DNA from: an uncultured Defluviitaleaceae bacterium
Lineage (GTDB): Bacteria; Bacillota; Clostridia; Lachnospirales; WQUN01
Assembly: GCA_964446745.1 (NCBI GenBank)
Contig: CAYURR010000005.1
Coordinates: 343-24,342, forward strand
Reading direction: 5' to 3'
DNA length: 24,000 nucleotides
The position numbers and the translations under genes were made by a program. The notes under the pieces are model-generated. The model saw nothing but the letters and a program-made list of their open reading frames with translations. It searched no databases and was not told the origin of the DNA. The number at the start of each line of letters is the position of its first letter. The stretch's first letter is position 1. Below are positions 5,017 to 24,000 of this stretch, piece after piece.

Positions 5017-5039
5017 ACTAAAGATGAGGAGATAACAAA

Positions 5040-5593: not shown

Positions 5594-5635
5594 TAGTCAT
5601 AGCAAATAAGTATTGAGGGGAGTGCTTTATATATT

Positions 5636-7537
5636 ATGAGTTTTAGCAAAACCACGAAGCGGATATTTATTGTTTCTCTTATCAGTATCGTGATTTTAGT
5701 TTTCATCGGGTGTATAGTCACATACATAAAAAATCAACCGGGCGAAAATAAGTCCGAAGCCGTGAATAGTATAGAGACAATCATAAACACAGAAAGCGCG
5801 GAAGTAAAAGTAGATGAGTTTATATATGGAACTTGGGTGGTAAATAATTTTTTGGGTTTTGATGCTATTACTAAGGATGATGCGGAATGGCCGGACGGTG
5901 AAAAGATTGTCGGTAAGACTGTTATCATTGGCAATGAACTGTTTTCCACAAAAGACTTTGGCGATGAATACGATAAATATGCCGTTGAAATCGAAAATCC
6001 GTCATATAGAATAGGAGAGGTGTTGACAGGCGAAGCATTTTCGCTGCGTGTATCGCAGTCAACGGCGGATCAATCCATCTCAAAGCTGAGCAATGAAGCT
6101 ATTACATTAATAAACGCGCTATCATCTGACACTCAGATATCTGGTCCGGCGTTATATATGATCGATAATAATCGGCTATTGATTTCGCTAAACTGCGATT
6201 ATTTTGAGCTTGAAAGGCTGCCGATGGGCACAGTTGCTGCCAGTGGAATCGAAACGCTCATAGCCCCGACATTTGAGTTTGACAATGTATTGAGTTTTTC
6301 GGGTGACGGGTTTGCGAATGTAGTAAAGGACGGAAAATGGGGAGTCGTAAATGCGGATGGAAAATTGGTTCTGGAGACTGTTTACGAATATACTCCCGGA
6401 GAGGTATATGAAGGGTTTTTTAATGGGCTTACTGTGGTTATGCAGAATGGAAAATACGGATTTGTAAATGAAGAAGGTAATATAGTTATACCTCTGGCAT
6501 ATGATTATTGCAGCAATTTTAAAAATGGTTTCGCCGATGTGCGTAAGGACGGAAAGTATGGCGTAATTGATACCAATGGCACTGTGCTTGTACCAATTGA
6601 ATATCAATCACTAAGTCTTTTACCAACAAGCTTAGCCATTGCGGCAAAGGACGTTAAGTGTGGCGTAATCGATATGACAGGGAATGAGGTTGTACCCTTT
6701 ATTTACGATAATATTTCTGCACTCCCATTTGATTCAAACTACTATAACCATCTCTTTGCCATCTGGCAAAACGGTAAGGCTGCCCTGGCGGATATAGACG
6801 GGAATCCATTAACGGACTTTGTTTACGAGCACATAGACTTTTTCTCTGAAGAACGTGCACTTGTAAGAAAAGAAGATGGTAAATGGGGATATATTGACAA
6901 AAATGGCGTCGAGATTATCCCGGCGGTTTATGAGAAGGCTTCGCAGTTCTATCATGGTCTTGCCAGCGTAACTGAGGATGGCGTGGATAGTTTTATTGAT
7001 ACAACCGGAACGGTCTCATTTGTAGGTAATGCATTGGGATTTTATGATAGTTATAATCTTGCCCTACGAAGTGACGACAATGGCAAATGGGGAGCCATAG
7101 ACCGTACCGGAAAGCTTGTCGTCCCCATTGAATATGACGATATAAATATCTATGACGAAGTGCTTATATGGGTCAATGACAGGACAGAACAGCGTTCCGG
7201 TTATTATGACAAGGATGGTAACATCGTTGTGCCCTTGAGGCAGAATAGCACCGGAAAAGGCAGTAAACCTGCCGAAGGATTGATAGGGATTGAAAAAGAT
7301 AATAAATGTGGCTATGTAGACTATGCCGGTAATAGCGTTGTTGAATTTGAGTATGATGCTGTGGGCGAATTCAATGGTGGGTTTGCTCCGGTGCAAAAGG
7401 ATGATGTATGGGGCTATATAGACAAATCCGGGCAATACGTCGTTATGCCTGAATATGATCAGGCACAAAGCTTTTCAAATGGGTGGGCTTGGGTTCAAAA
7501 AGATGGTAAATGGGGTATATTGAGGATAATACAATAA
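5636..7537 (+). CDS. Membrane-anchored WG-repeat (KWG) protein
   Basis: 633 aa. The N-terminal TM/signal anchor is IFIVSLISIVILVFIGCIV. About 12 tandem repeats of ~35-40 aa follow, of the type (D)GKWG(V/Y)(I/V)(D/N)xxGxxV(I/V)PxxY(D/E), for example KWGVVNADGKLVLETVYE, KYGFVNEEGNIVIPLAYD and KWGYIDKNGVEIIPAVYE. Confidence 0.85.
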   Translation: MSFSKTTKRIFIVSLISIVILVFIGCIVTYIKNQPGENKSEAVNSIETIINTESAEVKVDEFIYGTWVVNNFLGFDAITKDDAEWPDGEKIVGKTVIIGNELFSTKDFGDEYDKYAVEIENPSYRIGEVLTGEAFSLRVSQSTADQSISKLSNEAITLINALSSDTQISGPALYMIDNNRLLISLNCDYFELERLPMGTVAASGIETLIAPTFEFDNVLSFSGDGFANVVKDGKWGVVNADGKLVLETVYEYTPGEVYEGFFNGLTVVMQNGKYGFVNEEGNIVIPLAYDYCSNFKNGFADVRKDGKYGVIDTNGTVLVPIEYQSLSLLPTSLAIAAKDVKCGVIDMTGNEVVPFIYDNISALPFDSNYYNHLFAIWQNGKAALADIDGNPLTDFVYEHIDFFSEERALVRKEDGKWGYIDKNGVEIIPAVYEKASQFYHGLASVTEDGVDSFIDTTGTVSFVGNALGFYDSYNLALRSDDNGKWGAIDRTGKLVVPIEYDDINIYDEVLIWVNDRTEQRSGYYDKDGNIVVPLRQNSTGKGSKPAEGLIGIEKDNKCGYVDYAGNSVVEFEYDAVGEFNGGFAPVQKDDVWGYIDKSGQYVVMPEYDQAQSFSNGWAWVQKDGKWGILRIIQ

Positions 7538-7540
7538 AGA

Positions 7541-7580
7541 AAAGCACAGGGAGCGTTAATGCCCTCTGTGCTTTTCTTTG
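7541..7580. terminator. Bidirectional intrinsic terminator between convergent genes
   Basis: The stem pairs 7541-7554 (AAAGCACAGGGAGC) with 7561-7574 (GCCCTCTGTGCTTT): 13 pairs with one mismatch and one G-U. The loop is GTTAAT. T-rich runs follow on both strands (TTTTCTTTG on plus, TTTTCTTTATTG on minus). The DUF2992 stop (7558-7556) lies in the loop. Confidence 0.6.
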
Positions 7581-7975
7581 CGTTTCTCTTGACGCAATTC
7601 AAACTGCCGTTGCTTTTCTTCTTCTCGTTGTTTACGAGAACGAGATTTTCGTTCAAGTTTTCCTTGTTCCTTCTGAAGCTGTAGCGCTTGTTGTGCTTTT
7701 GTACCTATACCGGTATTTACTATCTGCTTGTTTATTAAACGCTGCATTCGCTTTGGGTTTATACGCTTTGGCGCTGTTGCAGCCATTTCAATGGATGGAC
7801 TAAACCTAAATCTACTCCAATTGGCCAGCAAGAAGTCACAGACCTCATAATCCTTTGGCTCGGCTCCGAATGTGATTTTACAAACCTCATATAGCCCATT
7901 ATACTCACGCTCATAAAGACCTATCCAAAATACGGAATTAAACAGAATAGTAAGCTTAGCTACAGTTGTACCCAT
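7556..7975 (-). CDS. yjdF: DUF2992/YjdF-family protein
   Basis: 139 aa. The N-terminal half reads LTILFNSVFWIGLYEREYNGLYEVCKITFGAEPKDYEVCDFLL...RFSP...KRINPKRMQR, followed by a Lys/Arg/Glu-rich tail. This matches the B. subtilis YjdF family pattern as remembered. The SD AAAGGAGGGG lies 6 nt upstream. Confidence 0.8.
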   Translation of the reverse strand: MGTTVAKLTILFNSVFWIGLYEREYNGLYEVCKITFGAEPKDYEVCDFLLANWSRFRFSPSIEMAATAPKRINPKRMQRLINKQIVNTGIGTKAQQALQLQKEQGKLERKSRSRKQREEEKQRQFELRQEKRKEKHRGH

Positions 7976-8093
7976 GGAAAACCCCTCCTTTAATGTTCTG
8001 ATTGCAAAGAAGGGACAACCAAAGGAGGCAGGTTACTGACAACATCTCTGTTGCTCCCGGACTACCTACCGGGACGTGTTTTTATCTTTGCAT
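7976..8093 (-). promoter_or_regulatory. Structured 5' leader: candidate yjdF-class (azaaromatic) riboswitch with an anti-SD element
   Basis: Minus-strand leader. The closing helix pairs UGCAAAGA (8093-8086) with UCUUUGCA (8011-8004). It encloses the hairpins UCCCGG-N8-CCGGGA and CAACA-GAGA-UGUUG (a GNRA loop), plus AACC-N10-GGUU. The loop of the last hairpin contains CCUCCUUU (8029-8022), a perfect complement of the SD AAAGGAGG (7992-7985). The context, directly upstream of a DUF2992/yjdF gene, is where the yjdF motif is known to occur. Confidence 0.5.
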
Positions 8094-8108
8094 CTTGCTA
8101 CAACAAAA

Positions 8109-8137
8109 GCATACTGCAAAATATATACGAATTCAAC
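8109..8137 (-). promoter_or_regulatory. Putative promoter for the leader and yjdF gene
   Basis: Minus strand reads TTGAAT (8137-8132), a 17-nt spacer, then TATGCT (8114-8109), about 15 nt upstream of the leader's closing helix. Confidence 0.4.
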
Positions 8138-8312
8138 ACCTGATCTAATAAAAAGTGTAAGCCCTAATCTGCGAATTTTTCTTGTAAAGGTGTTTTGTTC
8201 ATGATAGATTAACGGTATATTCTAATTGAGTACATACGGTACTTGCTATGTATAGCTTATTTTATGATGTCAAGCCATAAGGGCGATTCTGCGTAATGGC
8301 AAGAAAGGAACG

Positions 8313-9668
8313 GTGTTTGTAACTATGAACGACAAGCGCATAAAGGTATTGGGGGAGGCCCCTGTGGTCAAGGCCATTTTGCAAATGGCAATACCCGTCG
8401 TGCTCGGGATGATGGTGCAGGTATTGTACAACTTGGTGGATACTTTTTTCATCGGTAGGCTCGGCGACCCGAACCAGTTAGCGGCTGCAAACATTACCAC
8501 GCCGGTGTTTATGATCATGATGTCTATCTCGGGTATCATCGGTACGGGTGCGGCATCGTACATCTCCCGCTGTCTCGGCGAGCAGGATTACGAGCGCGCT
8601 CACAAGACACTCTCGACCGGTGTTGCTATAGTTGTGGGATTGGGGATCATCGTTACGGTGCTGGGCTTGATCTGCATAACCCCGCTGATGAGGGCACTCG
8701 GTGCGAGCGAACAGACCCTGCCGTTTGCTCATGATTATTCATTTGTATTGTTGCTGGGCAGTATCCTGATCATGTGCAGCTTTACGTTTGGGCAGCTTTT
8801 GCGCAGCGAGGGGGCCGCTATGCCTTCAATTACCGGTATGGCGCTCGGTACGGTTACGAACATTATCTTAGACCCTATATTCATATTCGTGCTCGGCATG
8901 GGCATACGCGGCGCAGCGATAGCTACCGTACTGGGAAATGCGGTGGGGGTAGGGTACTACATCTTTTATTATGCATCCGGCAAATCTACGGTAAAGATCT
9001 CCGTTCGAAACATCAGCGGCGACAGGAAAATTTGGGGACAGATATTTGGCATCGGTACGCCGGCATCGGTCAGCCAGCTTTTAATGAGTGTCGCCATGAT
9101 CATACTGAACAACTTGGCGGCATCCTACGGTGATGTGGTGGTGGCCGGGATGGGTGTCGCGAACAAGATCATGACGATCGGCACTTTTGTGTTCATGGGC
9201 TTCGCTGGTGGATGTCAGCCGCTTGTGGGCTACAACTACGGCGCAAAGAACTACCCGCGTGTCAATGAGGTAATAAAAAAGGCCATGCTGATGATGGTCA
9301 GCATTGGCCTTGTACTATTTGCTTTATTTGGTGTGTTTGCGAAGGGATTGATCGGAGTATTCGCGAGCGATATGCCGCAGGTCGTGGACGAGGGCGTTCT
9401 AATCCTACGTGCGCTGATGTGGTCGCTGCTGTTCGTGGGTTCTCAGATGCTTGCCATGACCACGGTGCAGGCGTTCGGTAAGGCAAAGGCCTCTCTGTTT
9501 CTGTCGGTAGCTCGGCAAGGGTTGTTCTTTATCCCTCTGTTATTTATATTGAACACGCTGTTTGGGTTTAGAGGTCTGATCTATGCGCAGCCGGTTTCGG
9601 ATGCACTATCGCTAACGCTTTCTCTGACAGTGCTACGGTTTATCCTCACGAAAGCGGAGAAAGAATAA
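8313..9668 (+). CDS. MATE-family multidrug/toxic-compound efflux transporter
   Basis: 451 aa with about 12 hydrophobic segments. The N-terminus GEAPVVKAILQMAIPVVLGMMVQVLYNLVDTFFIGRLG is the typical MatE signature. The start is either GTG 8313 or ATG 8325 (MNDKRIKV), and the SD spacing is imperfect for both. Confidence 0.9.
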   Translation: MFVTMNDKRIKVLGEAPVVKAILQMAIPVVLGMMVQVLYNLVDTFFIGRLGDPNQLAAANITTPVFMIMMSISGIIGTGAASYISRCLGEQDYERAHKTLSTGVAIVVGLGIIVTVLGLICITPLMRALGASEQTLPFAHDYSFVLLLGSILIMCSFTFGQLLRSEGAAMPSITGMALGTVTNIILDPIFIFVLGMGIRGAAIATVLGNAVGVGYYIFYYASGKSTVKISVRNISGDRKIWGQIFGIGTPASVSQLLMSVAMIILNNLAASYGDVVVAGMGVANKIMTIGTFVFMGFAGGCQPLVGYNYGAKNYPRVNEVIKKAMLMMVSIGLVLFALFGVFAKGLIGVFASDMPQVVDEGVLILRALMWSLLFVGSQMLAMTTVQAFGKAKASLFLSVARQGLFFIPLLFILNTLFGFRGLIYAQPVSDALSLTLSLTVLRFILTKAEKE

Positions 9669-10326
9669 AGTCCATCAGCTTTTTGATATCCTGAAAACCA
9701 GGTACCACGAGATCGGCCTCGTGCAGGATAAGCGGATCGCCGATTCCGACAACGGACATCTTTGCGTTACGAGCGGCCTTGATGCCCTCGAACGCATCCT
9801 CAAATACCACGCATTGATCTGTCGGTATGCCGAGCTCTGTCGCCGAGTACAAAAATACCTCGGGGTCGGGCTTGGCCTTTGCGACATTGTTTCCGTCGAC
9901 GAGTACGTCGAACAGATCTGTAATATTTAAACGGCTAAGGATGATACCCGCGTTCTTGCTCACAGAGCCCAACGCGATCCTTAAGCCGTTTTCTTTTAGG
10001 GTTTTGATAAACGACTTTACACCGGGCAGAAGCTCGTCCTGTGTAATAGCGGATATGAGCTTGACATATTCGGTGTTCTTCTCGGTTGCAAGCTCGATCC
10101 TTTGGATCTCCGGCATGGAGCGTATCGCGGGGTCGTCACTCAGCGAGAGTACGATGTCCAGCGATGCCATACGGCTCACACCCTTTAGGCGCTCGTTATC
10201 GGCCTCTGTAAACCGGATGCCGAGCCGGTCGGCCATGGCCTTCCAGGCTATGAAGTGGTATCTTGCGGTATCGCATATCACACCGTCTAAGTCAAAAATA
10301 GCCAATTGAAACCTACTATTATTCAT
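9646..10326 (-). CDS. pgmB: Beta-phosphoglucomutase (HAD superfamily)
   Basis: The true start is the ATG at 10326 (MNNSRFQLAIFDLDGVICDT); the longer track ORF to 10611 is an out-of-frame run through the EamA gene. It has the DxDG nucleophile motif, LKGVSRMASL, KAKPDPEVF and FEDAFEGIKAA. The start overlaps the EamA stop by 8 nt (ATGAATAA). It is linked to a GH65 phosphorylase. Confidence 0.9.
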   Translation of the reverse strand: MNNSRFQLAIFDLDGVICDTARYHFIAWKAMADRLGIRFTEADNERLKGVSRMASLDIVLSLSDDPAIRSMPEIQRIELATEKNTEYVKLISAITQDELLPGVKSFIKTLKENGLRIALGSVSKNAGIILSRLNITDLFDVLVDGNNVAKAKPDPEVFLYSATELGIPTDQCVVFEDAFEGIKAARNAKMSVVGIGDPLILHEADLVVPGFQDIKKLMDFILSPLS

Positions 10327-11218
10327 GATGGGCTTCGCCCTCCTTTGAAAGAATAACGGACAATATAATGATCGCGCCGCCGATAGCCATGTTGATGGTC
10401 GCGGATTCAAAACCGAATAGAACCGAGAAGCACGCGCCGAACACACCCTCGAGCGAAAGTAGGATCGCAGCCTGTGACGATGATGTATGCTTCTGCCCAT
10501 AGGTCTCGAGCAGGTAACACAGGAACGTGCTGACCACGCCCAAATACAGCACAGGCAATAGTCCTGCGGAAAAGTCGACCTGCGAAATGGTATTGATCTC
10601 GAATATGCCAAAGTAGATCAGAGACAATACTGCAGCCGTGGCCATCTGCAGAAGCAACAGCGGTTTTAGCGGGATAGATTTTGCCACGATGTCGAGATAT
10701 GCGATATGTACCGCGAACAGTACCGCGCAGAGCAGTGTAAGGATATCGCCGAGATTGAAGCTGATCCCCGAGCCCGGCACATAGGTGAGCACGATCATAC
10801 CCGCGAGGCACAGTGCCGTGAGCACAAAAGCGCGTACCTTAGGGCGCTTTCTCAGCAGTATCCAGCTTGCAAACGGAACCAGGATCACATAGACGGCGGT
10901 GATCAAGGAATTGTTCGATGGGGTGGTGAAACGGAGGCCGACGGTCTGTGCGAGAAACGAGACAAATAGCAGCGCGCCGGCCATTACGCCGCGTATTAGG
11001 TCGGCTTTGTTTACCTTAAAAGCTTCTTTGCGAAAGAAGATACCGATGATCAGTGTCGCGAGCGTAAAACGCGTAGCCATGATAAAGCCCGCACCGAAAT
11101 TTGCATTTATAGCGTTCTGGGCGGCGATAAAGCCGCCGCCCCACAGTAACGATGCAAATATCAGTGCGGACATAGCCAGAAATTTAGTACGTTTGTTGTC
11201 TGTCCTTGTGTCCTTCAT
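10319..11218 (-). CDS. EamA/DMT-superfamily transporter (10 TM)
   Basis: 299 aa with two EamA-like halves and hydrophobic throughout. SD AAGGA overlaps the GH65 stop, 8 nt before the ATG. Confidence 0.85.
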   Translation of the reverse strand: MKDTRTDNKRTKFLAMSALIFASLLWGGGFIAAQNAINANFGAGFIMATRFTLATLIIGIFFRKEAFKVNKADLIRGVMAGALLFVSFLAQTVGLRFTTPSNNSLITAVYVILVPFASWILLRKRPKVRAFVLTALCLAGMIVLTYVPGSGISFNLGDILTLLCAVLFAVHIAYLDIVAKSIPLKPLLLLQMATAAVLSLIYFGIFEINTISQVDFSAGLLPVLYLGVVSTFLCYLLETYGQKHTSSSQAAILLSLEGVFGACFSVLFGFESATINMAIGGAIIILSVILSKEGEAHHE

Positions 11219-11229
11219 CTAATCTGTCC

Positions 11230-13568
11230 TTATCTGATAACGCGTTCGGCGTTATTAATTAAAATTGTGAGCGGCTCGCCCGAGAGCAATTCCACGTCTA
11301 CGTTATTTCTATCTTTCTCACCCGATGTAATATTTATCTTCATCAAGCGTCCGTTGAACCAAAGCTTGAATGTAATGTGATCCCATTTCTCCGGCAGGCT
11401 CGGGTCTATGCAAAGCATGGAGTTATGATTGATGCTCACGCCGCCAAAGCCGAATACGAGCACCTTCCAGACACCACCCGCGTTTGCGGCATGTATGCCC
11501 TCGCGTGTGTTGTGCTGCAGATCATTGAGGTCGATATACGCCGCGCGGCGCAGATATTTGTATGCCATATCCGTACGGCCTACACGCAGCCCCATGATCG
11601 AGTAGATACTCGGTGACAATGACGAGCCATGCAATGTGCGCTTCTCGTAATAGTCGTAATTCACACGTTGGGTCTCCGAATCAAAGCGATCTCCCAGCAG
11701 ATACATGAGCATAACGACATCGGCTTGTTTGATCAGCGTTGTCTTGCGCACGGACATCTCCTTCAGGATCGCGGGCCTAACGGGCATGTCGTTTTCATTA
11801 TATTTCTCGATCACTACGTCGAGATAATCCGTAAAATATCCCTCGAACTGCTCGAACAGCTTGCCGTCCTTTGCCATCGGCAGATACACATGATCATGCA
11901 CATGCCGCCAGAACGAGAGCTCCTCGTCTGTGATCGTAAGCTTAGCGACTAGCTCCGCATAGCGCTCGGGGTAAGTAGCCTTTAACAGGTCGATGATCTC
12001 GAACCCGAGCTCGATGGAGTACATAGCAAGATAATTTGTATAGCAATTATTGTTTACTGGCTCGTGCCACTCGTCGGGCCCCGTAACCTGTGTGATTTCG
12101 TAGTGCTGCTTTGCTTCGTTATACTCAAAGCGTGTGCTCCAGAAACGTGCGGTCTCTAAGATGATCTCCGCACCCTTGTCGAGCATGAATCCGATGTCGC
12201 CGGTCGCTTTGAAATATTTATATAAGCCCACCGCGACGGCCGCCGTGATATGGTGCTCATACTGCGCAACATAACAGCGATAGCAACTGCCGTCCGGCAT
12301 GATCGTCCAATCCGGGCATTCCTCATCACCTGTATCGGCAGATTCCCATGGATACTTAGCACCCTTGTAGCCGTTGTCGGCGGCATTTCTGCGTGCCGCA
12401 TCGAGCAGGAAGTAGCGGTAAGATACGAGATTACGCGCGGTCTCTGGGAACACATGCGTAAAGAACGGCAACATGAACAGTTCCGTATCCCAGAATGCGT
12501 GTCCACCGTATTCCTCGCCGTGCAGAAGCTTCGCGCCCACGTTTACATGGCTGTCGTGCTCGCTGCCTGTGGACATGAGTTGATAGATATTGAAACGTAT
12601 CACGCGGTTTAGTTCGAAGTCGTTGCCTATGTCGATATCAGCCATATCCCACATCTTGGCGTATACAGATGTATGCTGCTCGAGCTCTGTGTCGATCGTC
12701 GTATGATCGAGATGCTCCATACCCGTTAGCACCGCGTGCTTAATGGGCTTTGAATATTTGCCGTCGAAATCCCGCTCCGCATAGATGCTCATGATCTTAT
12801 GTATCTCGATTGTCTCGTTTTGTTTTAGGTCGCAGTCACAAAACTCTACGGCCTGCTCGCCAAAGCGGGAGTACATGCGGTTCTTGCGGATGTTATTGCC
12901 CGATGCGTCGCAAAGCAATACGCGCGTGCCGATGCCCACATGCTGTCCGAAGTCACGTGTCTTTACCTCCACATAGATCCCGTCGCTTGCGTCCGCGTTC
13001 TCTACAAGCTCCGTGTGCTTGACCTTAAAGCGTGGCGCATCAGCGAAGTTTAATACGCTCGCGTCGATGATGCTCTCGCATTCCAATATGCCGTCATAGT
13101 TCAGCGCCGTCACAAACATCTTGATCGCACCGAAATGTACATTGCTGCGGCTAAGAAAGCGCATGGTCTCAATCCGTGTCTCGTTGCCCCAACGGTCTTT
13201 TACGACCATGTGGCGATAGAGGACGGATTTTTTCATATCCAGCACACGCGAGAACGATAGTATCTCGGAGCGGTCGACTCCCAGAAGCTCCTTGTTTACA
13301 TATAACTTCGTCGGAAGCCAATTCGGCAGGTTCGCGAGCTCGCGCATAAAGGTCTCAGACTTGTCGAACACACCGTTTATAAACGTACAGGGTAATTCGA
13401 TATGACTGCCTTCCTCAAACGCGCCACGCACGCCCATGTAGCCGTTGGCCATCGCGAATACGCTCTCGTACTGTAGATTTTTTGAAATGTCGTATGTTTC
13501 TTGCTCGATCAGGTACGCTTCGTCGCTTATCAGAGCACGAATATGGGGTGAAAAAAATTCTGCTTTCA

Positions 13569-13569
<1 letters not shown>
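11230..13569 (-). CDS. Glycoside hydrolase family 65 alpha-glucoside phosphorylase (maltose/kojibiose/nigerose-phosphorylase-like; specificity unknown)
   Basis: 779 aa from the ATG at 13569, with SD AAGGAGG 8 nt upstream and a TGATG overlap with the GH2 stop. The catalytic-acid region reads HGEEYGGHAFWDTELFMLPFF. The phosphate-site-like motif is KRTLHGSSLSPSIY. It is co-operonic with beta-PGM, the classic GH65 phosphorylase partner. Confidence 0.9.
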
Positions 13570-16837
<3,268 letters not shown>

Positions 16838-16858
16838 TAATATTTTTCTATTCGAATC

Positions 16859-18532
16859 TTACTTAGTTTTAAGCTTCTCGCTCATTTCCTTATATGTGGC
16901 TGTCAGGTAGTTGTTGACGGTTTGAATGCCGATCTTGTCTGCTTCGGCGAGCATCTCGTCGTAGATCTTGTTGAACTCGGCCTCGTCCTTTGCGAGTGCG
17001 ACGCGTGGGATGTACTCATCTACAAGCGAACCAAGGTTGTTGTAGATCACGCGTTCGTCGGTGTCGGCCTTCGGGTAGCACAGGTCAACGATGTTGGACC
17101 AGTTGGCTTTCTTTGTTGCGTCCATGAAGATCTGCTTTGTAGCATCAGATGCTGCATCATAGAAATATGTGGACTCACGGATATAGTCTGTCGCTGATAC
17201 TAGGAAGCCAATTTCCTTGAACTCGCTCGGGAAGGTGCCTGCCTCAAGCGCATTCTTCGGGCGGTCTAACAGCTTGAAGCCGCCGTCGCCGACCTTTTCC
17301 CAGTCTGTACCCTCAACACCGAGCTTTGTTACGATCTGGTTCTCGGGTTGCTTTGCCCAGTGCAGGAACTTGATAGCGGTTTCGGGATCCTTGTTCTTGC
17401 GGCTGATGAAGAAGCCCGACCAGCCCGATACGCCGATGGTATAGTTCCATGCATCCGTGAGCGGCAGCTGTACAAAGCTCGCCTCCGGTACAGCCTTTTG
17501 AACGTTTGCGGTGAAGCGTTGCTCATCGTTACCCGCATAGTGGGAGACCATGAACGCCTTGCCGTTGTTTACATACTGCATGGTCTGCTCGTCGCTCGTG
17601 TACGCGAAGTTCTCGTCCAAGATCAAATCGTTCTGCGCGAGCTCAAACAGCAGCTTCAGGTAATCGCGGTATTTTGGGGAAGAAAGCGAGTATACATAGT
17701 TGCCGGATGCATCCTTGGGCATGTACGGATCATATCCGACAAACTGAGCAAGGCCGCTGTATTCACGCATGTTCAGGACCAGCGGGATCATGTCCGGGTT
17801 CTTTTCCTTTACGGACTTCAGCATGTTGATGAAGTCGTCCTTTGAATTGACCTTTGGTGAGCCGATAGCCTTGTAGATATCGTCTCTCATGTGCAACTGA
17901 CCGAAGTTCGGGCCGTTTGTGTCGCTCGATAGGATCTCGTCGATCGTGTTGAACTCATTCTTCAGCATGTAATACTTGCCGTCCTTTGAGTAGTTCGCGT
18001 TCAACAGCTTGACGGTCTCGGGTATCTGCCAGCTCGGTGTGTACTGCGAGATAAGCTCGTCGAGCGGATAGCAGAGATCGGGATCGGAGAGCTTGTTCAG
18101 CTTTGCGGAGCTGCCGACCATGATAACGTCCGGCAGATCGCCCGATGCGATCAACAGGTTCAACTGCTCGCTGTCTGTGGACTTGGTCATGTCGAAGCTC
18201 ACGCCTGTGAGACGCTCGACCTCGTTCGGTATGATCCCGTCTTCGAGGCTGTCATACTCGAGCCAGGTTACATCGGCAAAGAACGAGAACTTGACCTTGT
18301 TGTTCGGATCCGGGAACTCCGAATTGGACTGTGTAGCGTCAGCGGTGGTTGTTTCCGCGGTCGTGGTCTCAGCTTCGGTGTTGGTTTCGGTTGTTGTTTC
18401 CGTAGTGGCTTCTGCTGCTGTGGAGCCGCCTGCGCTTTGCGGTGTCGAGGCATTGCCGCCGGTTTTGCTGCCGCAAGCTGCCATGGACACAAGCATCAAC
18501 GTAGCGAGTGCACTTGCTAAAAATCGTTTCAT
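16859..18532 (-). CDS. ABC transporter extracellular solute-binding lipoprotein (large LplA-type sugar SBP)
   Basis: 557 aa. The lipoprotein signal is MKRFLASALATLMLVSMAAC with a lipobox Cys, followed by a Thr/Glu/Ala-rich linker and then an SBP fold. SD AAAGGAGG lies 8 nt upstream. It is adjacent to two permease genes. Confidence 0.9.
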   Translation of the reverse strand: MKRFLASALATLMLVSMAACGSKTGGNASTPQSAGGSTAAEATTETTTETNTEAETTTAETTTADATQSNSEFPDPNNKVKFSFFADVTWLEYDSLEDGIIPNEVERLTGVSFDMTKSTDSEQLNLLIASGDLPDVIMVGSSAKLNKLSDPDLCYPLDELISQYTPSWQIPETVKLLNANYSKDGKYYMLKNEFNTIDEILSSDTNGPNFGQLHMRDDIYKAIGSPKVNSKDDFINMLKSVKEKNPDMIPLVLNMREYSGLAQFVGYDPYMPKDASGNYVYSLSSPKYRDYLKLLFELAQNDLILDENFAYTSDEQTMQYVNNGKAFMVSHYAGNDEQRFTANVQKAVPEASFVQLPLTDAWNYTIGVSGWSGFFISRKNKDPETAIKFLHWAKQPENQIVTKLGVEGTDWEKVGDGGFKLLDRPKNALEAGTFPSEFKEIGFLVSATDYIRESTYFYDAASDATKQIFMDATKKANWSNIVDLCYPKADTDERVIYNNLGSLVDEYIPRVALAKDEAEFNKIYDEMLAEADKIGIQTVNNYLTATYKEMSEKLKTK

Positions 18533-18559
18533 TACTTCATCCTCCTTTAATTATGTATA

Positions 18560-19483
18560 TTAACCCTTTACCGCGCCTAACATAATGCCTTTAACGAAAT
18601 ATTTCTGCAAAAACGGATAAACCATTATGATAGGCAGGACCGCTATAACCATTGCGGCCATCTGCACGGATTGGGACGTTACTGTACGGTACTTCGAAGA
18701 CTGCATCAGAGCTGCCGCGGACGATGTATCGACCTGGTTTTTCATGATAACGTCACGCATTAGAAATGCGAGTGAGCGCAAGCTCTTGTTTGCCGTGACA
18801 TAGAATGCGGTATCGGACCATGCGTTCCACTGAGAGACCGCCGCGAATAAGGCGAGTGTCGCCAAGAGTGGCTTAGTGAGCGGTAGAATGATACGCAGAT
18901 AGATCGTGAGCTCGTTCGCACCGTCGAGCATAGCGGATTCGTGCAGCTCGGCGGGCAATTCGCGGAAGAAGGATATCGCCAATATACAGTAATAGATGCT
19001 AAACATCGGCGGTATGACGTAGACGGTAAAGGTATTGAGCATGCCGAGCCCGCGCAATGTGAGGTAGTAGGGGATCAGGCCGCCGCTGAAGTACATGCAT
19101 ACGAGCAAAAATGTGTTGTAGAATTTCTTGAACAGCAAATTCGGAAACGACATACCATATGCAACGAGGCATGTAAAGAACACACAGAGACTGGTACCGA
19201 TGAGTGTCTTGGACACCGAGACCAAGATCGCGAGTATCCACTTCGAATCGGTCAGAAACTGCATGTAGTTAGAAAATGTGAACGCGCGCGGCCAGAGATA
19301 GATGCCGCCCATGGATGCGTCGATACCGTCATTGAGGGACAGCACGACCGTTAGGTAGAACGGGTACGCGGTGATAAAGAACACGACTGTCATAAACACC
19401 AAGATGAACGTATCGAGAACGCGGTCCTCGACCGTGGGCTTGATGCGGTTTTTTATTGCCGTTACGGACATGGGATTCACCAA
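18560..19483 (-). CDS. Carbohydrate ABC transporter permease (LplC-type, BPD_transp_1)
   Basis: 307 aa with 6 TM segments and an EAA-like loop region (ESAMLDGANELTIYLRIILP). The start is uncertain: TTG 19483 as in the track, or ATG 19471 (MSVTAIK). Confidence 0.88.
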   Translation of the reverse strand: MVNPMSVTAIKNRIKPTVEDRVLDTFILVFMTVVFFITAYPFYLTVVLSLNDGIDASMGGIYLWPRAFTFSNYMQFLTDSKWILAILVSVSKTLIGTSLCVFFTCLVAYGMSFPNLLFKKFYNTFLLVCMYFSGGLIPYYLTLRGLGMLNTFTVYVIPPMFSIYYCILAISFFRELPAELHESAMLDGANELTIYLRIILPLTKPLLATLALFAAVSQWNAWSDTAFYVTANKSLRSLAFLMRDVIMKNQVDTSSAAALMQSSKYRTVTSQSVQMAAMVIAVLPIIMVYPFLQKYFVKGIMLGAVKG

Positions 19484-19496
19484 CCTTTCGCGTTAT

Positions 19497-20414
19497 CTAA
19501 AATAGTGAGGAGCCGACGAGCTTCTTTGAGCAATAGTTGGCCGAGAGTACGAGCACCAGCGACACGAGCGACTGGAACAGACCCGCAGCGGCCGCGTATG
19601 AATAACGCCCGAGTCCAAGGCCGCTTTTGTATATGTACACGTCGAGTATTTCAGATTTACTTATGTTCATCGTATTACCGAGCATCATGGCCTGATCGAA
19701 GTTCGCACCGGAGAGTAAACCTCCGATCGAGAGGATCAACAGCACCGAGATCGCACCCTTGATGGATGGCAGTGTGATGTGCCAGATGCGCTGCAAGCGG
19801 CCCGCGCCGTCTATCTGCGCACTCTCGTATAGTGAAGGGTCGATGCCTGTGATCGCGGCGAGGTAGATGATCGCGCTCCAGCCCATTTCCTTCCAGGTCT
19901 CGCTAAAGATCGCGAGCCCGTAGTAATACTTTGGATCGGTCAGCAGGGGGATGGGCTTTTTGATAATGCCGAGGGTCATCATGGCCTCATTAAACGCGCC
20001 CGAGGATGTGGAAAAGAACACAAACATGATACCCGAGACGATGATCCATGAAATGAAGTGGGGTAGGTAGCTGACGGTCTGGACGATACGCTTATACTTC
20101 TGCTGGCGCATCTCCGATAACATGATCGCGAAGATGATGGCTGCAGGGAATTGAACAAGCAGTTTTCCGACGCTGATAAATAGGGTGTTGGTCAAAAGGG
20201 TGCCGAATTTCCGGTCGAACAGGAATTCCTTAAAGAACTTCAAGCCAACAAATTCGCCTGTAAAGATGCCCAGAAAACCGCTCTTGATGTCATAGTTTTT
20301 GAACGAGATGAGCACACCGGTCATAGGCACCACGCTGAAGATGATCAGGAAAATAAGCCCCAACCAGATAAACAGATGCATCACGGCCTGCTTTTTAAAA
20401 GTCCTGATGAGCAA
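19497..20414 (-). CDS. Carbohydrate ABC transporter permease (LplB-type)
   Basis: The EAA loop reads ESAQIDGAGRLQRIWHITLP, with 6 TM segments. The track ORF runs to ATG 20444, and another ATG sits at 20432. Neither has an SD, whereas GGGAGGG sits 7 nt before the in-frame TTG at 20414, so that start is preferred. The start remains uncertain by up to 30 nt. Confidence 0.85.
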   Translation of the reverse strand: MLIRTFKKQAVMHLFIWLGLIFLIIFSVVPMTGVLISFKNYDIKSGFLGIFTGEFVGLKFFKEFLFDRKFGTLLTNTLFISVGKLLVQFPAAIIFAIMLSEMRQQKYKRIVQTVSYLPHFISWIIVSGIMFVFFSTSSGAFNEAMMTLGIIKKPIPLLTDPKYYYGLAIFSETWKEMGWSAIIYLAAITGIDPSLYESAQIDGAGRLQRIWHITLPSIKGAISVLLILSIGGLLSGANFDQAMMLGNTMNISKSEILDVYIYKSGLGLGRYSYAAAAGLFQSLVSLVLVLSANYCSKKLVGSSLF

Positions 20415-20457
20415 ACAAAATCCCTCCCTCATGAAATATTCCATATAATTGATATAG

Positions 20458-20486
20458 AATATATTCCAAGAGGAAGGGATTGTAAA
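20458..20486 (-). promoter_or_regulatory. Putative promoter of the ABC/GH operon
   Basis: Minus strand reads TTTACA (20486-20481), a 17-nt spacer, then TATATT (20463-20458), in the 60-nt gap between the AraC stop and the first permease gene. Confidence 0.4.
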
Positions 20487-20504
20487 TGAAAAAACCCGAA
20501 CGAC

Positions 20505-21434
20505 TTACACATTTCCGACATCAACAATATCTGTCAGCTGTGTGAGCAAGCGCATACGCACGAGCGAAGGCGGTTCGTTTTCAAACTTTTTCATCGTATG
20601 TGAAAAGTAATTGGCATTCTTAAATCCGACCATCAGTGCGATGTCTTCGAGCGCGAGTGCGGTGTTTAGCATGAGCTTTTTAGCCTTTGCGAGACGGTAA
20701 CGCGCGATGTACTCGACCAAATGCTCGCCCGTAAGCTTTTTGAACACACGGCTCGTGTGATCGGGGCTTAATCCCACATGTTCTGCGATGTCCGACACCT
20801 GCAGCGCCTCGCCAAAGCGCTCAGACACAAATTCCTTAATCCGAGCGACGATCTCATGATGATATGATGACATATAACTCTGAGCATTCACATTTACAGT
20901 CTCGGCATAGATCGCATCGAGTATCGTCAAAAGCAGCGCCTTTGCGGTGAGCTCCCAACCCGCGTAATGCTGCACATAGGCCCGGTACAGCGATTTCATG
21001 GCGTTGCGGGCCTTTTCCGGGTTTTTCATCGCGATGTGCTCGGGAAAGGTGTAGCCGTTTTCGAATACGGGATTGTTTCGCACATGCTCCCTGTCGAGCT
21101 CCATGCCAAACAGGCGGATGTAATGTTTATTGATATCATAGTAGTCCGCGAGCATATCAAAGTCCTCCCTGTAGAAGAAATCAAAATGCACGAAGTAGAT
21201 GTTTGCGCAGGTGTCTACCCAGAAGTTGTGGGAGGTATCGGGCGGTATCAGACATATGCTGTTGGGTTTTATCGTGTGCTTCCTGCCGCCCAGACTTAGA
21301 AACGCCTCGCCCGACATGCACATCATCAACTCGTGATCGTATATCCTGCGGGGCTGGTGCTTCCAAGAATCGTTGTGCTGCAAGCCCACCTCGCGCACGC
21401 ACGGGTTTATCTCTGTAATGCGGTGGTGATGCAT
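20505..21434 (-). CDS. AraC-family transcriptional regulator (cupin-like sensor domain plus HTH_18)
   Basis: 309 aa from the ATG at 21434 (MHHHRITEINP), with SD AAGGAGG 6 nt upstream; the track start at 21482 lacks an SD. The N-terminal AraC-binding/cupin region reads YDHELMMCMSGEAFLSLGGRKHTIKPNSICLIPPDTSH. The C-terminal double HTH reads VSDIAEHVGLSPDHTSRVFKK...IALMVGFKNANYFSHTMKKF. Confidence 0.9.
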   Translation of the reverse strand: MHHHRITEINPCVREVGLQHNDSWKHQPRRIYDHELMMCMSGEAFLSLGGRKHTIKPNSICLIPPDTSHNFWVDTCANIYFVHFDFFYREDFDMLADYYDINKHYIRLFGMELDREHVRNNPVFENGYTFPEHIAMKNPEKARNAMKSLYRAYVQHYAGWELTAKALLLTILDAIYAETVNVNAQSYMSSYHHEIVARIKEFVSERFGEALQVSDIAEHVGLSPDHTSRVFKKLTGEHLVEYIARYRLAKAKKLMLNTALALEDIALMVGFKNANYFSHTMKKFENEPPSLVRMRLLTQLTDIVDVGNV

Positions 21435-21470
21435 GGGGGACCTCCTTGGGGGGGGATGTGTGTGATGTTT

Positions 21471-21480
21471 ATTATAGCAC
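21471..21480 (-). promoter_or_regulatory. Extended -10 element (TGcTATAAT) upstream of the AraC gene
   Basis: Minus strand reads GTGCTATAAT, about 37 nt upstream of the AraC ATG. No good -35 is present, which is acceptable for extended -10 promoters. Confidence 0.4.
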
Positions 21481-21580
21481 AAAATCTACGGAAGGGTTCT
21501 GCGATGGGGGAGTTAACTAATACTTGATAACATACATAAGGATGTAACAAAATTGTAATGAATATTCTGTATACAATGCC

Positions 21581-21609
21581 TTGACATGCATGGGTCTAAT
21601 TGTTAGTGT
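21581..21609 (+). promoter_or_regulatory. Putative promoter of the reverse transcriptase gene
   Basis: TTGACA (21581-21586), a 17-nt spacer ending in TGT, then TAGTGT (21604-21609), giving an extended -10-like TGnTAGTGT. It lies 28 nt upstream of the ATG. The SD GGAGGA (21625-21630) is 6 nt before the ATG. Confidence 0.4.
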
Positions 21610-21636
21610 GTTCAATAAAACACTGGAGGAATAGCA

Positions 21637-24000
21637 ATGGATATATCTGAGCAACTTGAAAGAGCATACAAAAAGCTTAAGGCCAGTGTCTATTTTGATA
21701 AGACGCAGTTGATACTTCGTGATAAAGTCGTGGAATATGAAGAAATTAATGATTTACCAAGACGGTTTTATGAAATTGCGGCTATTCTAACAAATGATGA
21801 TAACGAAAAATGGAAGCAGTATCAAAATGATTTATTAGGTACTATTGATGTTCTTGAGTTTCCTAAAAAGTTATCCAAAGATAATAAGGGCAAAATTATT
21901 GTCAATGAATCAGCCGATGAGGTCGTGGTAGATGAACTACAACATTTTATTGATATTGACGTTGAAGGACAAATTTTGGGTGTTTTCTGGATTTTGACTA
22001 TTGGTATATTATTGGATAAAGAAGTCTATGAGCATTCATATGGAAACCGATTAAAAAGAAACCTGATAAAAGAAGATACCAATCAAACAACATTTTCACC
22101 TTACCTTTTCAAACCATATTTTGAACAATACGAGAGCTGGCGTAATAATGCACTGTCGTACGCAGAAAAGTGTATTGATAACAAACAAGATGTCTTTATA
22201 TTTACTATGGATTTTAAAAGGTTCTTTTATAGCGTCAAGATAACTGAGGATCAATTTGACAACTTTTTTGCAAATTATAGTGAAGGTAGTAATGAGGAAA
22301 AGGCAAACTTACTTGCGATTAAAAGAATAAACAAGTTTGTATTTAAAGTTATGAAAAGATATTCTAAGGAAGTAAAATGGGAGCATAACAAGGATGTTTT
22401 TTTACCTATCGGATTTTTTCCTTCGAATATTATATCAAATTGGTACTTGGGTGAATTTGATTCTGCTATTTCCAATCGATGGAATCCGGTTTATTATGGC
22501 AGATATGTAGATGATATTATAATTGTTGATAAAATAGAGAAAAATAGTGAAATATATAAAAAAGCAAAAGATAATAGTCTTACACAAGAGGAGGTTATAA
22601 ATTATTTTCTTTGCCGTTGCCGCGCGAATAGTAATTCTATATGTGAGATGAATTTGGGGCTGCTTGTTGAATTATCAATAAAAGAAAAAAAGATACTGTT
22701 TGATAATGATCAATTGAAAAAAGTAGCTTACAAAATAAATAATAGTGTTTTGCATAATAAAAATGCCCGAATTGTTGTTCAAAACGATAAAGTAAAGGTG
22801 TTTTATTTTAAAGCAGGGGGTTCTAAGGCAGTAATAAATAATTTTCGCAAAACAGTTAATGAAAATAAAAGTGAATTTAGGTATATGCCTGATGATAATG
22901 CGATTTTGCATGATTGTGAGTATAGCGAGATTTATGAGCTAAAAAGAGATGACTCTGTAAACAAATTTCGAAGTATAGATAGCGTTTCAATTAATAAATA
23001 TTCGCTGTCAAAGTTTTTAGGGAAATATCGTAGCGTTAGTTGTCTGATAAAGGACAAAAGAGAAAGTAAATTTGAGAGTGATATTCTAAAAATATTTACA
23101 ACTAAGGTTATTGTTGACGGTTTTATATTTTGGGAGCGAGTAATTGAAATATTAATTTTAAATGATAACTTTGAGTTGGCATTTGAATTTATTAAGAAGA
23201 TAGTAATAACATGTTCTAAAATTCGTATATCAAATCATCCCAATTCAGAAAAGCTTCAAAGCACCATGATAAAACATCTGCATTCGTCATATGTAAGGGT
23301 GCTGTCTTTGAGCTGGGGAGCGAAAGCGGAAAGAAATGTAATCAAGGTAAGTAAACTAATACAAGATAATATACTTGTAAATTTACATAGCAGCTTCGAA
23401 AAGGCTGAAATGCTTAGGTGTAGGCAAAATTACTGCGTTTCGAGAATGTGCAACAAGTACGTTTTACCTTCTCTTATCGATATTATTATTGGAACAACGG
23501 ATGAGTACATTAGTAATTTCAGAGAAGATTTTAATGACAAAAGTCAAATTAATTTGTCTGATTTCAACAGTTTCATTAAATATGCAAAACACTTTAAATT
23601 GAAAAATGAATATATTTATTACCCCTATCTAATAACTTTACAAGAATTAGAAATGTGCTTGTATATTAAACAAATATATAAAAAGATACAAACGGCTTCT
23701 CTCGATTTAGAACGTTTAAAAAAATTGTATGTATCAATAAATTACCGAACTAAAGGTAGCGGTCAACTAGAAAATGTATCTAAGGCAAATATTACATTTC
23801 CTAATAATGCTAAAGAAATAAAACTGCATGCCAACCAAGTAAGATCAGATAATAAATTAAGTGGTACATACAGCATAGCAATTGCGAATGCAAAACTCGA
23901 GAGCTCTAATTTATTAGGTGTGCTAACAGACAAGCCTATTCGATCTTATAAACGCTATCAAAAGCTTGCAAGCATAGTGAAACAGGCGATTAAGGAAAAA
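21637..24000 (+). CDS. Large stand-alone reverse transcriptase, UG/Abi (defence-associated, DRT-like) class; 3' end lies outside the window
   Basis: Translated by hand, since the ORF track omits it for lack of a stop in the window. An in-frame TAA sits at 21616 and the first ATG at 21637, followed by 788 sense codons to position 24000 in ~25-30% GC DNA. The N-terminus is MDISEQLERAYKKLKASVYFDKTQLILRDKV. RT motifs: SYGNRL (aa 134-139), motif A FTMDFKRFFYSV (Asp192, nt 22210-22212), motif B-like LPIGFFPSNIISNWYLGEFD (aa 256-275), and motif C YVDD (aa 290-293, nt 22504-22515). A helical region of more than 400 aa follows. Confidence 0.85.
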   Translation, partial: MDISEQLERAYKKLKASVYFDKTQLILRDKVVEYEEINDLPRRFYEIAAILTNDDNEKWKQYQNDLLGTIDVLEFPKKLSKDNKGKIIVNESADEVVVDELQHFIDIDVEGQILGVFWILTIGILLDKEVYEHSYGNRLKRNLIKEDTNQTTFSPYLFKPYFEQYESWRNNALSYAEKCIDNKQDVFIFTMDFKRFFYSVKITEDQFDNFFANYSEGSNEEKANLLAIKRINKFVFKVMKRYSKEVKWEHNKDVFLPIGFFPSNIISNWYLGEFDSAISNRWNPVYYGRYVDDIIIVDKIEKNSEIYKKAKDNSLTQEEVINYFLCRCRANSNSICEMNLGLLVELSIKEKKILFDNDQLKKVAYKINNSVLHNKNARIVVQNDKVKVFYFKAGGSKAVINNFRKTVNENKSEFRYMPDDNAILHDCEYSEIYELKRDDSVNKFRSIDSVSINKYSLSKFLGKYRSVSCLIKDKRESKFESDILKIFTTKVIVDGFIFWERVIEILILNDNFELAFEFIKKIVITCSKIRISNHPNSEKLQSTMIKHLHSSYVRVLSLSWGAKAERNVIKVSKLIQDNILVNLHSSFEKAEMLRCRQNYCVSRMCNKYVLPSLIDIIIGTTDEYISNFREDFNDKSQINLSDFNSFIKYAKHFKLKNEYIYYPYLITLQELEMCLYIKQIYKKIQTASLDLERLKKLYVSINYRTKGSGQLENVSKANITFPNNAKEIKLHANQVRSDNKLSGTYSIAIANAKLESSNLLGVLTDKPIRSYKRYQKLASIVKQAIKEK

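Follow-up and report, generated by a model that had tools for sequence, protein, structure and literature searches.

We have assigned the reading frame at positions 21637-24000 of the window (the whole stretch of 24,000 nucleotides that was analysed; all features below are given in its positions and on its + strand) to the 5' part, codons 1-788 of 1041, of an RT-nitrilase gene. On the basis of its translation, its identity to a public contig (L001) and its PADLOC profile, this gene is classed as UG5-large (the DRT11 family), which belongs to the class 3 UG/Abi reverse transcriptases (RTs). It is a divergent new member of an already known and tested family and not a new system. We consider it quite probable that it is a horizontally acquired single-gene anti-phage system, which would act by the mechanism that its tested relatives suggest. 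An earlier sequence-only reading had presented the gene as an unannotated candidate system, but the family was described in 2008 and 2022 and members of it were validated in 2022 and 2026 (PMC9226505, PMC13436386); re-filing a "giant unknown RT" under a named and tested defence family saves follow-up effort.

Reading frame and complete product

The frame starts with ATG at 21637, with a Shine-Dalgarno sequence GGAGG (21625-21629) located 7 nt 5' of it, and its 788 codons are free of stops and still open at the window end. With the local base composition one stop per 11 codons is expected, and a run of 788 codons without one has a probability of about 1e-32. The remaining five frames contain 29-130 stops, and the longest open run in 500 shuffled sequences was 121 codons. 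The long stop-free frame with a proper start, which was the point of departure of the sequence-only reading, was therefore borne out. Downstream extension, which had been recommended as a check, could be carried out with contig L001, which is identical to the window over an overlap of 2623 nt. This contig adds 253 codons, giving a complete product of 1041 aa with the gene end extrapolated to window position 24762, and covers 197 nt of the sequence 3' of the gene.

Assignment to the UG5-large family

The PADLOC model RT_UG5-nitrilase (PDLC03780) matched the window part with E 9e-140 and the full protein with E 5.8e-232 (771 bits), the latter match running end to end, from position 24 to 896 of the 907-position profile. 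UG5_small followed with 261 bits and Drt1a, matched in two local segments, with 73. The same model is also matched by the validated DRT11 of S. meliloti and by an E. coli plasmid homologue. A profile search ranked DRT1 (9yfd) first among PDB sequences (E 9e-18), in an alignment that includes the two catalytic centres; no NCBIfam model covers the protein. Features found here that define UG5-large are the profile match, the RT motifs, a C-terminal nitrilase with Glu, Lys and Cys, and a length of about 1000 aa that includes an inter-domain extension separating RT from hydrolase. A downstream TM protein, which is optional in the family, was not found; this feature is non-defining, as DRT11 too lacks a TM protein.

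These profile matches agree with the proposal that the gene belongs to the UG/Abi lineage of defence-associated RTs, but its finer placement has to be corrected. A class 1 (AbiA/AbiK-like) reading had been favoured, whereas the profile assignment is UG5-large, which was put by Mestre et al. in class 3, whose RTs carry a C-N hydrolase (PMC9226505; PMC13436386), and a nitrilase is present; AbiK, AbiA, Abi-P2, Drt7 and Drt8 gave no PADLOC profile match at E <= 0.01. The shortlist of UG1, UG10, UG7 or an unclassified clade omitted UG5-large, and only UG1/DRT1, itself another UG group, is related (73 vs 771 bits). Class 1 RTs (AbiK, AbiA, Abi-P2, DRT7, DRT8) do resemble the present protein in having a helical domain after the RT, in a distant fold similarity to AbiK and, by analogy, in a presumed protein-primed, untemplated DNA synthesis; they differ in that the protein found here carries the nitrilase defining class 3 (PMC9226505), whereas class 1 RTs are fused to HEAT-like repeats and lack a hydrolase.

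RT domain and candidate priming serine

All RT motifs quoted in the sequence-only reading were located in the translation: SYGNRL at aa 134-139, FTMDFKRFFYS containing Asp192 of motif A (codon 22210-22212), LPIGFFPSNIISNWYL at aa 256-271 and the catalytic YVDD at aa 290-293 (22504-22515), with LPIG at aa 256-259. The palm/fingers core was placed at aa 161-303 (22117-22545) according to RVT_1, conservation, the DRT1 alignment and the fold match. D192 and YVDD are kept in at least 70 of 71 UG5-large family members; a set of 39 relatives shows no variation in them or in LPIG, and 70-72 of the 73 aligned ORFs of a wider set have these motifs. The YVDD aligns with that of DRT1 (D324/D325) in the profile search of PDB sequences, and the RT fold of the AlphaFold2 model matches DRT9, AbiK, DRT4 and group II intron RTs (Foldseek). 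The proposed profile check gave a divided result: Pfam RVT_1 reached 29.2 bits on the window protein, just below its cut-off of 29.6, whereas the PADLOC UG/Abi match was strong.

The sole stretch with pLDDT <50 in the AlphaFold2 model is a flexible loop at aa 412-419 (22870-22893), whose motif S-[E/A]-F-x-x-[L/M]-P begins at Ser412 (codon 22870-22872). In the family alignment an equivalent serine is found in all 71 true family members, including DRT11 (Ser385), and likewise in DRT5L and DRT5S. It lies at most two positions from the priming Ser402 of DRT1 in two alignments, and HMMER left the loops unaligned. By analogy with DRT1, Ser412 is a candidate protein-priming residue. We tentatively propose, rating it a serious possibility though somewhat short of even, that the invariant serine of the loop following the RT core may be the priming residue across the UG5 family, including DRT5L and UG5-small, as the positional counterpart of DRT1 Ser402; a looser second reading joined to this proposal is that the RecQ-type helicase recurring as a neighbour in the Bacillota clade of the present gene might be a functional partner or a decoy. 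The RecQ link, if true, would recall that DRT1 depends on a phage helicase, Dda. A family-wide priming serine would run contrary to the published remark of the DRT1 authors, who stated that Ser402 is non-conserved in other class 3 RTs (PMC13275509), and the same remark counts against our explanation of the present gene.

Middle domain and nitrilase

Secondary structure of the AlphaFold2 model shows a helical middle domain at about aa 454-705 (22996-23751), leading from the RT to the nitrilase. As modelled, this domain is the counterpart of the extension that class 3 RTs have between their domains (PMC9226505) and, in DRT1, of the alpha-helical repeat domain (PMC13275509). The following nitrilase (C-N hydrolase) domain, recognised by PADLOC, Pfam and Foldseek, is cut by the window end after its N-terminal 77 or so residues (23770-24000). 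PADLOC RTasNitrilase matched aa 757-1019 with E 2e-29, Pfam CN_hydrolase matched aa 773-844 with 16.5 bits, under the curated cut-off, and Foldseek matched the model to nitrilase/amidase folds with TM 0.67-0.70. The failure of RVT_1 and of CN_hydrolase to reach the curated Pfam cut-offs counts against the explanation preferred here. The model itself (pLDDT 85, pTM 0.87) has an RT fold plus a nitrilase fold, and the structure prediction suggested in the sequence-only reading thus returned both a helical middle domain and a C-terminal enzyme domain.

Of 71 relatives, at least 70 retain the nitrilase residues E796, K863, C902 and E904, and C902 aligns with C1116 of DRT1; all four residues are encoded past the window end, on L001, as is a conserved C-terminal tail (K1011, P1014, P1015). 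The effector predicted from sequence and model is the C-terminally fused nitrilase, which lies largely just past the window end. It had been called unknown from the window, but the first 75-77 or so nitrilase residues are inside it and the remainder is on L001. The substrate of the nitrilase is no easier to find from this locus.

Comparison with known systems and proposed mechanism

Tested members are only 21-28% identical to the protein, which counts against our explanation, and the nearest homologue is about 51-57% identical. DRT11, from pSymA of S. meliloti RMO17 (WP_040120558.1), is the UG5-large solo-gene member that was validated and named in 2026 by Sanchez-Nieto et al. (PMC13436386). 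It protects against phages at low MOI only, requires both the YVDD and the nitrilase Cys, has no need for a TM gene or an upstream RNA and tolerates upstream deletion, and RNA-seq revealed no ncRNA for it (PMC13436386). Our protein resembles DRT11 in the order RT-linker-nitrilase, in matching the same PADLOC model end to end, in size (1041 vs 1005 aa), in the conserved YVDD and nitrilase K/C/E residues, in the serine loop (NENKSEFRYMP here, ERASEWRAMP in DRT11), and in being encoded by a solo gene with no TM partner and, as far as Rfam and RNA folding show for ours, no ncRNA signal. It differs in that identity is just 21% for the RT (BLASTP E 1e-24) and 28% for the nitrilase (E 1e-34), that the family tree puts it in a deep clade apart from DRT11, that its host is of a Clostridia lineage and not an alphaproteobacterium, and that the toxin-antitoxin/Abi genes flanking DRT11 were not found here.

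For DRT5L, a UG5-large protein, biochemical tests come from Neville et al. [quoted passage not shown] It is of the same family as our protein, aligns over the full length (E 2e-67) and has the same Ser-containing loop motif; identity is 25%, and DRT5L is in a proteobacterial clade near two of the relatives collected (L062, L056). DRT1 (UG1, PDB 9yfd) primes on Ser402; its DNA adducts drive the formation of filaments that are dormant, and activation depends on Dda of the phage (PMC13275509). DRT1 is likewise a class 3 RT-nitrilase fusion whose two active sites both align with those found here, and it shares the helical domain between RT and nitrilase, a Ser in a flexible loop at a nearly equal distance past the palm, and a conserved C-terminal tail after the nitrilase. 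It is, however, about 190 aa longer than our 1041-aa protein (1200-1300 aa being the size for DRT1/UG1), and DRT1 is the only system for which filament assembly, a lid formed by the C-terminus and triggering by Dda are known; the restriction of filaments and lid to DRT1 counts against carrying its mechanism over to our gene. The RT-nitrilase plus TM system of E. coli E101 was validated as anti-phage by Rousset et al. 2022, according to PMC9226505 and PMC13436386. This system, too, is built on an RT-nitrilase fusion from the UG5 radiation; its location is a P2/P4 hotspot, and for defence it requires a downstream TM gene, which was not found here.

The mechanism we propose is as follows. From DRT1, DRT5L and DRT11, the RT would need no RNA template, and DNA synthesis would start on a side chain of the protein itself, plausibly Ser412 in the flexible loop, the product being a short, semi-random ssDNA covalently attached to the protein. 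The DNA adduct would drive the formation of nitrilase-mediated oligomers, as in DRT1, which would be competent yet held dormant until the nitrilase is set free by some function of phage replication. It would then hydrolyse some essential metabolite, and the infected cell would stop or die before phage release (abortive infection). Because of its minimal solo-gene architecture, the gene could be used for testing a single-polypeptide mechanism across the UG5-large family. It is of modest value as a test case, as a divergent UG5-large gene whose Clostridia lineage is poorly sampled and whose clade has no experimental representative.

Genomic location and relatives

The gene is sharply foreign in composition: nowhere in the window is the AT content higher than at 21637-24000 (GC 0.29-0.32), and the gene as a whole has GC 0.313 and GC3 0.27, while the adjacent genes have GC 0.50 and GC3 0.62-0.71. 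It sits between an AraC-regulated sugar locus (GH2/GH65/ABC), of which the divergent AraC gene is its upstream neighbour, and a convergent gene whose end is separated from it by a 93-nt spacer. Both the AT-richness and the picture of a lone RT gene, foreign in composition to its surroundings and beside a metabolic operon, as given in the sequence-only reading, hold in view of these values and neighbours, the operon being one for sugar utilisation. The AraC protein has no homologue of >42% identity besides itself. Adjacency to the AraC regulator and the sugar genes may suggest that the RT-nitrilase has been domesticated for a function other than defence (e.g., in metabolism or stress) and is co-regulated with the sugar locus, and no nitrilase substrate is known anywhere in the family. 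We regard this as extremely unlikely, on the basis of the difference in GC3 from the neighbouring genes, of the lack of synteny with sugar genes in 70 relatives, of the location of some relatives in type I R-M operons, beside CBASS Cap15 and beside AbiE, and of the defensive function of three tested relatives (PMC13436386, PMC13275509, PMC9226505).

Another alternative is that the gene is an orphan or decaying UG5-large gene, unable to work alone, whose partner (a TM protein or a RecQ-type helicase) has been lost or was never there. A TM gene is required for defence in the E. coli system (PMC9226505), and a RecQ-type helicase gene adjoins the RT-nitrilase gene in seven relatives of the same clade; no TM partner gene is present in the flanks (the divergent AraC gene upstream, the 93-nt spacer and convergent gene downstream), nor is a RecQ gene found at this locus. 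In addition, a VEHIK-VEHIK tandem duplication of 5 aa (15 nt) occurs in the nitrilase domain directly after the conserved GVEH motif, and no defence island was found around the gene, which is thus isolated from other defence genes. The absence of both partners, the location outside a defence island and the duplication all count against a functional single-gene system. On the other hand, the frame of 1041 codons is intact with all catalytic residues kept, a TM gene is present in only 31 of 299 UG5-large members (PMC9226505), DRT11 and DRT1 function as single genes (PMC13436386, PMC13275509), and no RecQ gene occurs within 1.5 kb in either of the two tree-nearest relatives (L002 and L005). We therefore judge the orphan explanation unlikely.

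Two candidates from the survey of relatives were rejected on inspection. One relative (L037) appeared to carry two RT-nitrilase genes, but its second ORF is unrelated by BLAST and contains a chance Y.DD match. Neighbouring genes with 8-10 TM in two others (L023, L024), taken as possible defence partners, look like polysaccharide flippases beside an epimerase.

Non-coding sequence

The intergenic region in common with the divergent AraC gene (21435-21636) was analysed by sequence inspection, RNA folding and Rfam. The spacer had been estimated at about 150 nt, which agrees with the 154 nt to the longest AraC ORF; to the AraC ATG, the distance is 202 nt. Folded as RNA, this region is no more stable than shuffled sequences (z = +0.58), and Rfam gave no match at gathering score and no intron, retron or DGR family even at E <= 1. 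These results bear on the possibility that the enzyme is a templated RT copying an ncRNA or mRNA into cDNA, as class 2 DRT2/DRT9 do, with the nitrilase acting downstream of the cDNA. DRT9 is among the closest RT-fold matches, and absence of an ncRNA is not provable from sequence alone. Nevertheless, with no Rfam match, no excess structure in the 202-nt upstream spacer and just 93 nt downstream before the convergent gene, and with DRT11 having no ncRNA by RNA-seq and tolerating upstream deletion (PMC13436386), this possibility appears very unlikely.

An origin of the RT in a retroelement, whether selfish or diversity-generating (group II intron, retron or DGR), is already refuted by the results. 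The palm is weakly similar in sequence and fold to DGR, retron and intron RTs; against this, the UG5 profile is ahead by hundreds of bits with retron and DGR profiles far below, and searches of the locus with Pfam, Rfam and for repeats found no Cas1, maturase, intron, retron or DGR features, the only repeats being short ones of chance level and none of them TR/VR-like or msr/msd-like. The sequence-only reading had correctly set aside group II intron, retron, DGR and CRISPR RTs.

Inspection by eye of the intergenic region points to a promoter-like site, TTGACA (21583-88) followed by a 17-nt spacer and TAGTGT, where a promoter scan gave only weaker sites; the AraC ATG is preceded by a Shine-Dalgarno sequence AAGGAGG, also read by eye.

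The full-length gene

The frame starting at window position 21637 on the forward strand runs without a stop to the window end at 24000, giving 788 codons in translation, and its ATG is preceded by GGAGG located 7 nt upstream. With the local base frequencies (A 0.38, T 0.31, G 0.18, C 0.12), about one codon in 11 should be a stop, which puts the probability of 788 open codons at about 1e-32; the longest open run in 500 shuffles was 121 codons, and the remaining five frames over 21637-24000 carry 29-130 stops. The sequence-only reading was therefore correct in taking this frame as a real gene with a Shine-Dalgarno sequence and ATG, and the RT motifs that it quoted (SYGNRL, FTMDFKRFFYS, LPIGFFPSNIISNWYL and YVDD) were all found in the translation, as was its placement in the lowest-GC (most AT-rich) region of the window.

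A protein search found an identical public protein (P0001; 100% identity, 1041 aa), encoded by a public contig of 3582 nt (L001) whose 2623-nt overlap with the window shows no difference; codons 1-788 thus fall inside the window, and the gene end would be window position 24762. In L001, the stop of the full 1041-aa frame is followed by a 93-nt spacer and the end of a convergent gene on the opposite strand (C-terminal peptide GRYPTFEDGLKCCGIIDAILESDREKRYVLCS), presumably resembling a Gfo/Idh/MocA-type oxidoreductase. A GC-rich hairpin in this spacer (L001 3386-3480, which would be window 24763-24857; -28 kcal/mol, z = -2.2, with 5 of 200 shuffles equally stable) is plausibly a two-way terminator; a simple terminator scan assigned no terminator there. 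In the nitrilase domain, just beyond the end of the window, 15 nt are perfectly duplicated in tandem (GTTGAACATATAAAA twice; L001 2723-2752, which would be window 24100-24129), so that the conserved GVEH motif is immediately followed by VEHIK-VEHIK; the extra five residues are absent from relatives in the alignment.

Assignment to the UG5-large family

The full protein matches the PADLOC RT_UG5-nitrilase profile end to end (E 5.8e-232, 771 bits, positions 24-896), and the window fragment alone matches it up to profile position 681 of 907 (E 9e-140). The broad assignment to the UG/Abi defence lineage made in the sequence-only reading thus holds, but its placement in class 1 (AbiA/AbiK-like) does not, because a nitrilase-fused UG5-large protein belongs to class 3. 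Its candidate families (DRT1/UG1, DRT7/UG10, DRT8/UG7-like or an unclassified clade) were also mistaken: the same protein scored 261 bits with UG5_small and only 73 bits with Drt1a, and the AbiK, AbiA, Drt7 and Drt8 profiles gave no match in the PADLOC search. In Pfam, RVT_1 (aa 161-303) and CN_hydrolase (aa 773-844) both stay slightly under their cut-offs, which is consistent with a divergent family.

Mestre et al. (2022, PMC9226505) use class 3 for large UG/Abi RTs linked to either a C-N hydrolase or a phosphohydrolase, and UG5-large for RTs that carry a nitrilase fused at the C-terminus. Of 299 UG5-large members, 31 have a transmembrane (TM) gene downstream (PMC9226505), and Rousset et al. 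(2022) validated an E. coli system of UG5-large plus TM gene, in which the TM gene is required (as reported in PMC9226505). A solo UG5-large gene of Sinorhizobium meliloti was subsequently validated and named DRT11 (Sanchez-Nieto et al., 2026, PMC13436386); its protection is confined to low MOI and disappears on DD>AA or Cys>Ala mutation, RNA-seq found no ncRNA, and deletion upstream had no effect (PMC13436386). DRT11, taken from pSymA, matches the same PADLOC model as the present protein, with identities of 21% in the RT and 28% in the nitrilase, and DRT5L, which aligns from end to end, shares 25% identity (E 2e-67). Because DRT5S is labelled UG5S in the supplement of Neville et al. (2026, PMC13275509), we regard DRT5L as UG5-large. 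The present gene is, by sequence comparison, a divergent further member of UG5-large, a family already named and tested.

In a search with a profile of 39 homologues, the best solved relative was DRT1 (PDB 9yfd, E 9e-18), whose alignment spans RT and nitrilase and places D324/D325 on YVDD and C1116 on C902. The catalytic residues are intact: across the 39 close homologues, and across a broader sampling of 71 true members of the family (Bacillota, Bacteroidota, Proteobacteria and archaea), D192, YVDD, E796, K863, C902 and E904 show little or no variation. An AlphaFold2 model of the full protein is of high confidence (pLDDT 85.2, pTM 0.87), with a helical domain (aa ~454-705) separating the RT-fold and nitrilase-fold parts. 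In Foldseek, nitrilase/amidase folds were the matches of the C-terminal third (TM 0.67-0.70), and the N-terminal third matched DRT9, group II intron, AbiK, DRT4, DGR and retron RTs. The effector is a fused nitrilase seen in the full product on L001; neither it nor the named and tested status of the family could be known from the window alone.

The rejection of a group II intron, retron or DGR in that reading is supported, because no such RNA family was matched in Rfam even at E <= 1 and repeats around the gene are at chance level; folding of the upstream spacer was no better than that of shuffles.

Ser412 and possible mechanism

DRT1, DRT5S and DRT5L synthesize DNA without a template, the product being covalently bound to the protein, and DRT1 primes on Ser402 in a loop unresolved by cryo-EM (Neville et al., 2026, PMC13275509). 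DRT1 forms tetramers and dormant filaments driven by DNA adducts, its nitrilase site is covered by a domain-swapped C-terminal lid, and its activation requires the T4 helicase Dda (PMC13275509). By analogy with DRT1 only, the present protein may be supposed to form oligomers driven by DNA adducts, to have a C-terminal lid and to be triggered by phage replication proteins; the tail C-terminal to the nitrilase (K1011, P1014, P1015), which 63-72 of 73 aligned ORFs retain, is in line with a lid.

Ser412 is present in 71/71 true members, within the motif S-[E/A]-F-x-x-[L/M]-P, and opens the sole stretch of the AlphaFold2 model with pLDDT <50. Its equivalent is found in DRT11 (ERASEWRAMP), DRT5L (ENRSSAFRLPEE) and DRT5S (EANSSDFLLLPVDD). 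In a sub-profile, DRT1 K373 aligned with K385, and the invariant Ser lies 27 residues on from this aligned Lys, as against 29 for DRT1 Ser402; MAFFT placed the two serines two columns apart, anchored by a shared Pro-acidic pair, loop alignments being weak. Neither of the two UG5 papers puts forward a priming residue; we hypothesize that Ser412 may be one. Counting against this hypothesis, the DRT1 authors described Ser402 as not conserved in other class 3 RTs (PMC13275509).

Relatives and their neighbours

Relatives are encoded at no fewer than 507 loci in species-representative genomes, and a protein collection search gave 901 matching proteins; BLASTP puts the nearest homologue at ~51% identity, and the multiple alignment puts it at 57%. 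A rough neighbour-joining tree joins the protein to two MAG sequences (L002, L005) within a clade made up mostly of Bacillota, distinct from the clades of DRT11, the E. coli plasmid homologue and DRT5L relatives. Type I R-M hsdS and hsdR lie on either side of the relative in three loci (L039, L064, L067), a CBASS Cap15 two-TM effector adjoins it in L065 (6439-7062), and an AbiEii/AbiEi pair adjoins it on the E. coli plasmid (L081, 1660-3349); these are typical defence-island settings, in contrast to the window. Small TM proteins occur near relatives in L058, L044 and L079. A complete RecQ-type helicase (DEAD, Helicase_C, RecQ Zn-binding, RQC and HRDC domains) is directly adjacent on the same strand in seven loci of the Bacillota clade, upstream of the RT in L004 (8109-9926), L026 (3410-5353), L009, L033 and L037 (8102-9925) and downstream in L046 and L010; one is fused to a UvrD-type helicase. 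This adjacency could reflect a hotspot or a functional link, the latter being set beside the dependence of DRT1 on a phage helicase. The window has no RecQ gene.

Genomic context

The gene has GC 0.313 and GC3 0.27, against GC 0.50 and GC3 0.62-0.71 in adjacent genes, and composition shifts near 21480 and near 24790. It is a lone foreign gene rather than part of an island, in agreement with the earlier description of a single gene in a foreign patch beside a metabolic operon. A transmembrane partner fits neither upstream nor downstream, and PADLOC found nothing defence-related among neighbouring window genes except a generic MerR helix-turn-helix match. The 5' neighbour is a divergent AraC-family gene of a sugar locus on the reverse strand (9646-21434), which includes two ABC permeases, a 557-aa solute-binding protein, a GH2 beta-galactosidase, a GH65 phosphorylase, an EamA transporter and a HAD hydrolase; a MatE gene is also among the genes past AraC. 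The nearest named relatives of the GH65 protein (Vallitalea, Lachnospiraceae), called kojibiose phosphorylase, have 56-64% identity, indicating that the host belongs to a poorly sampled Clostridia lineage. The longest HAD ORF (9646-10611) overlaps the EamA ORF (10319-11218), and its true start is therefore probably further downstream.

The window is a compositional mosaic, with GC 0.36-0.41 and GC3 0.34-0.40 at 1-8200 and GC 0.50 and GC3 >0.62 in the sugar block at 8300-21450; the RT gene is therefore not the sole low-GC segment. The left 8 kb encodes a WG-repeat protein (633 aa), MarR, DUF2268, MerR-TipAS, a LytTR/GHKL regulator-kinase pair and DUF2992 (7556-7975, reverse strand). Immediately 5' of the DUF2992 gene is a strong match to the azaaromatic (yjdF) riboswitch aptamer (7995-8095, reverse strand; Rfam RF01764, 93.9 bits, cut-off 45).
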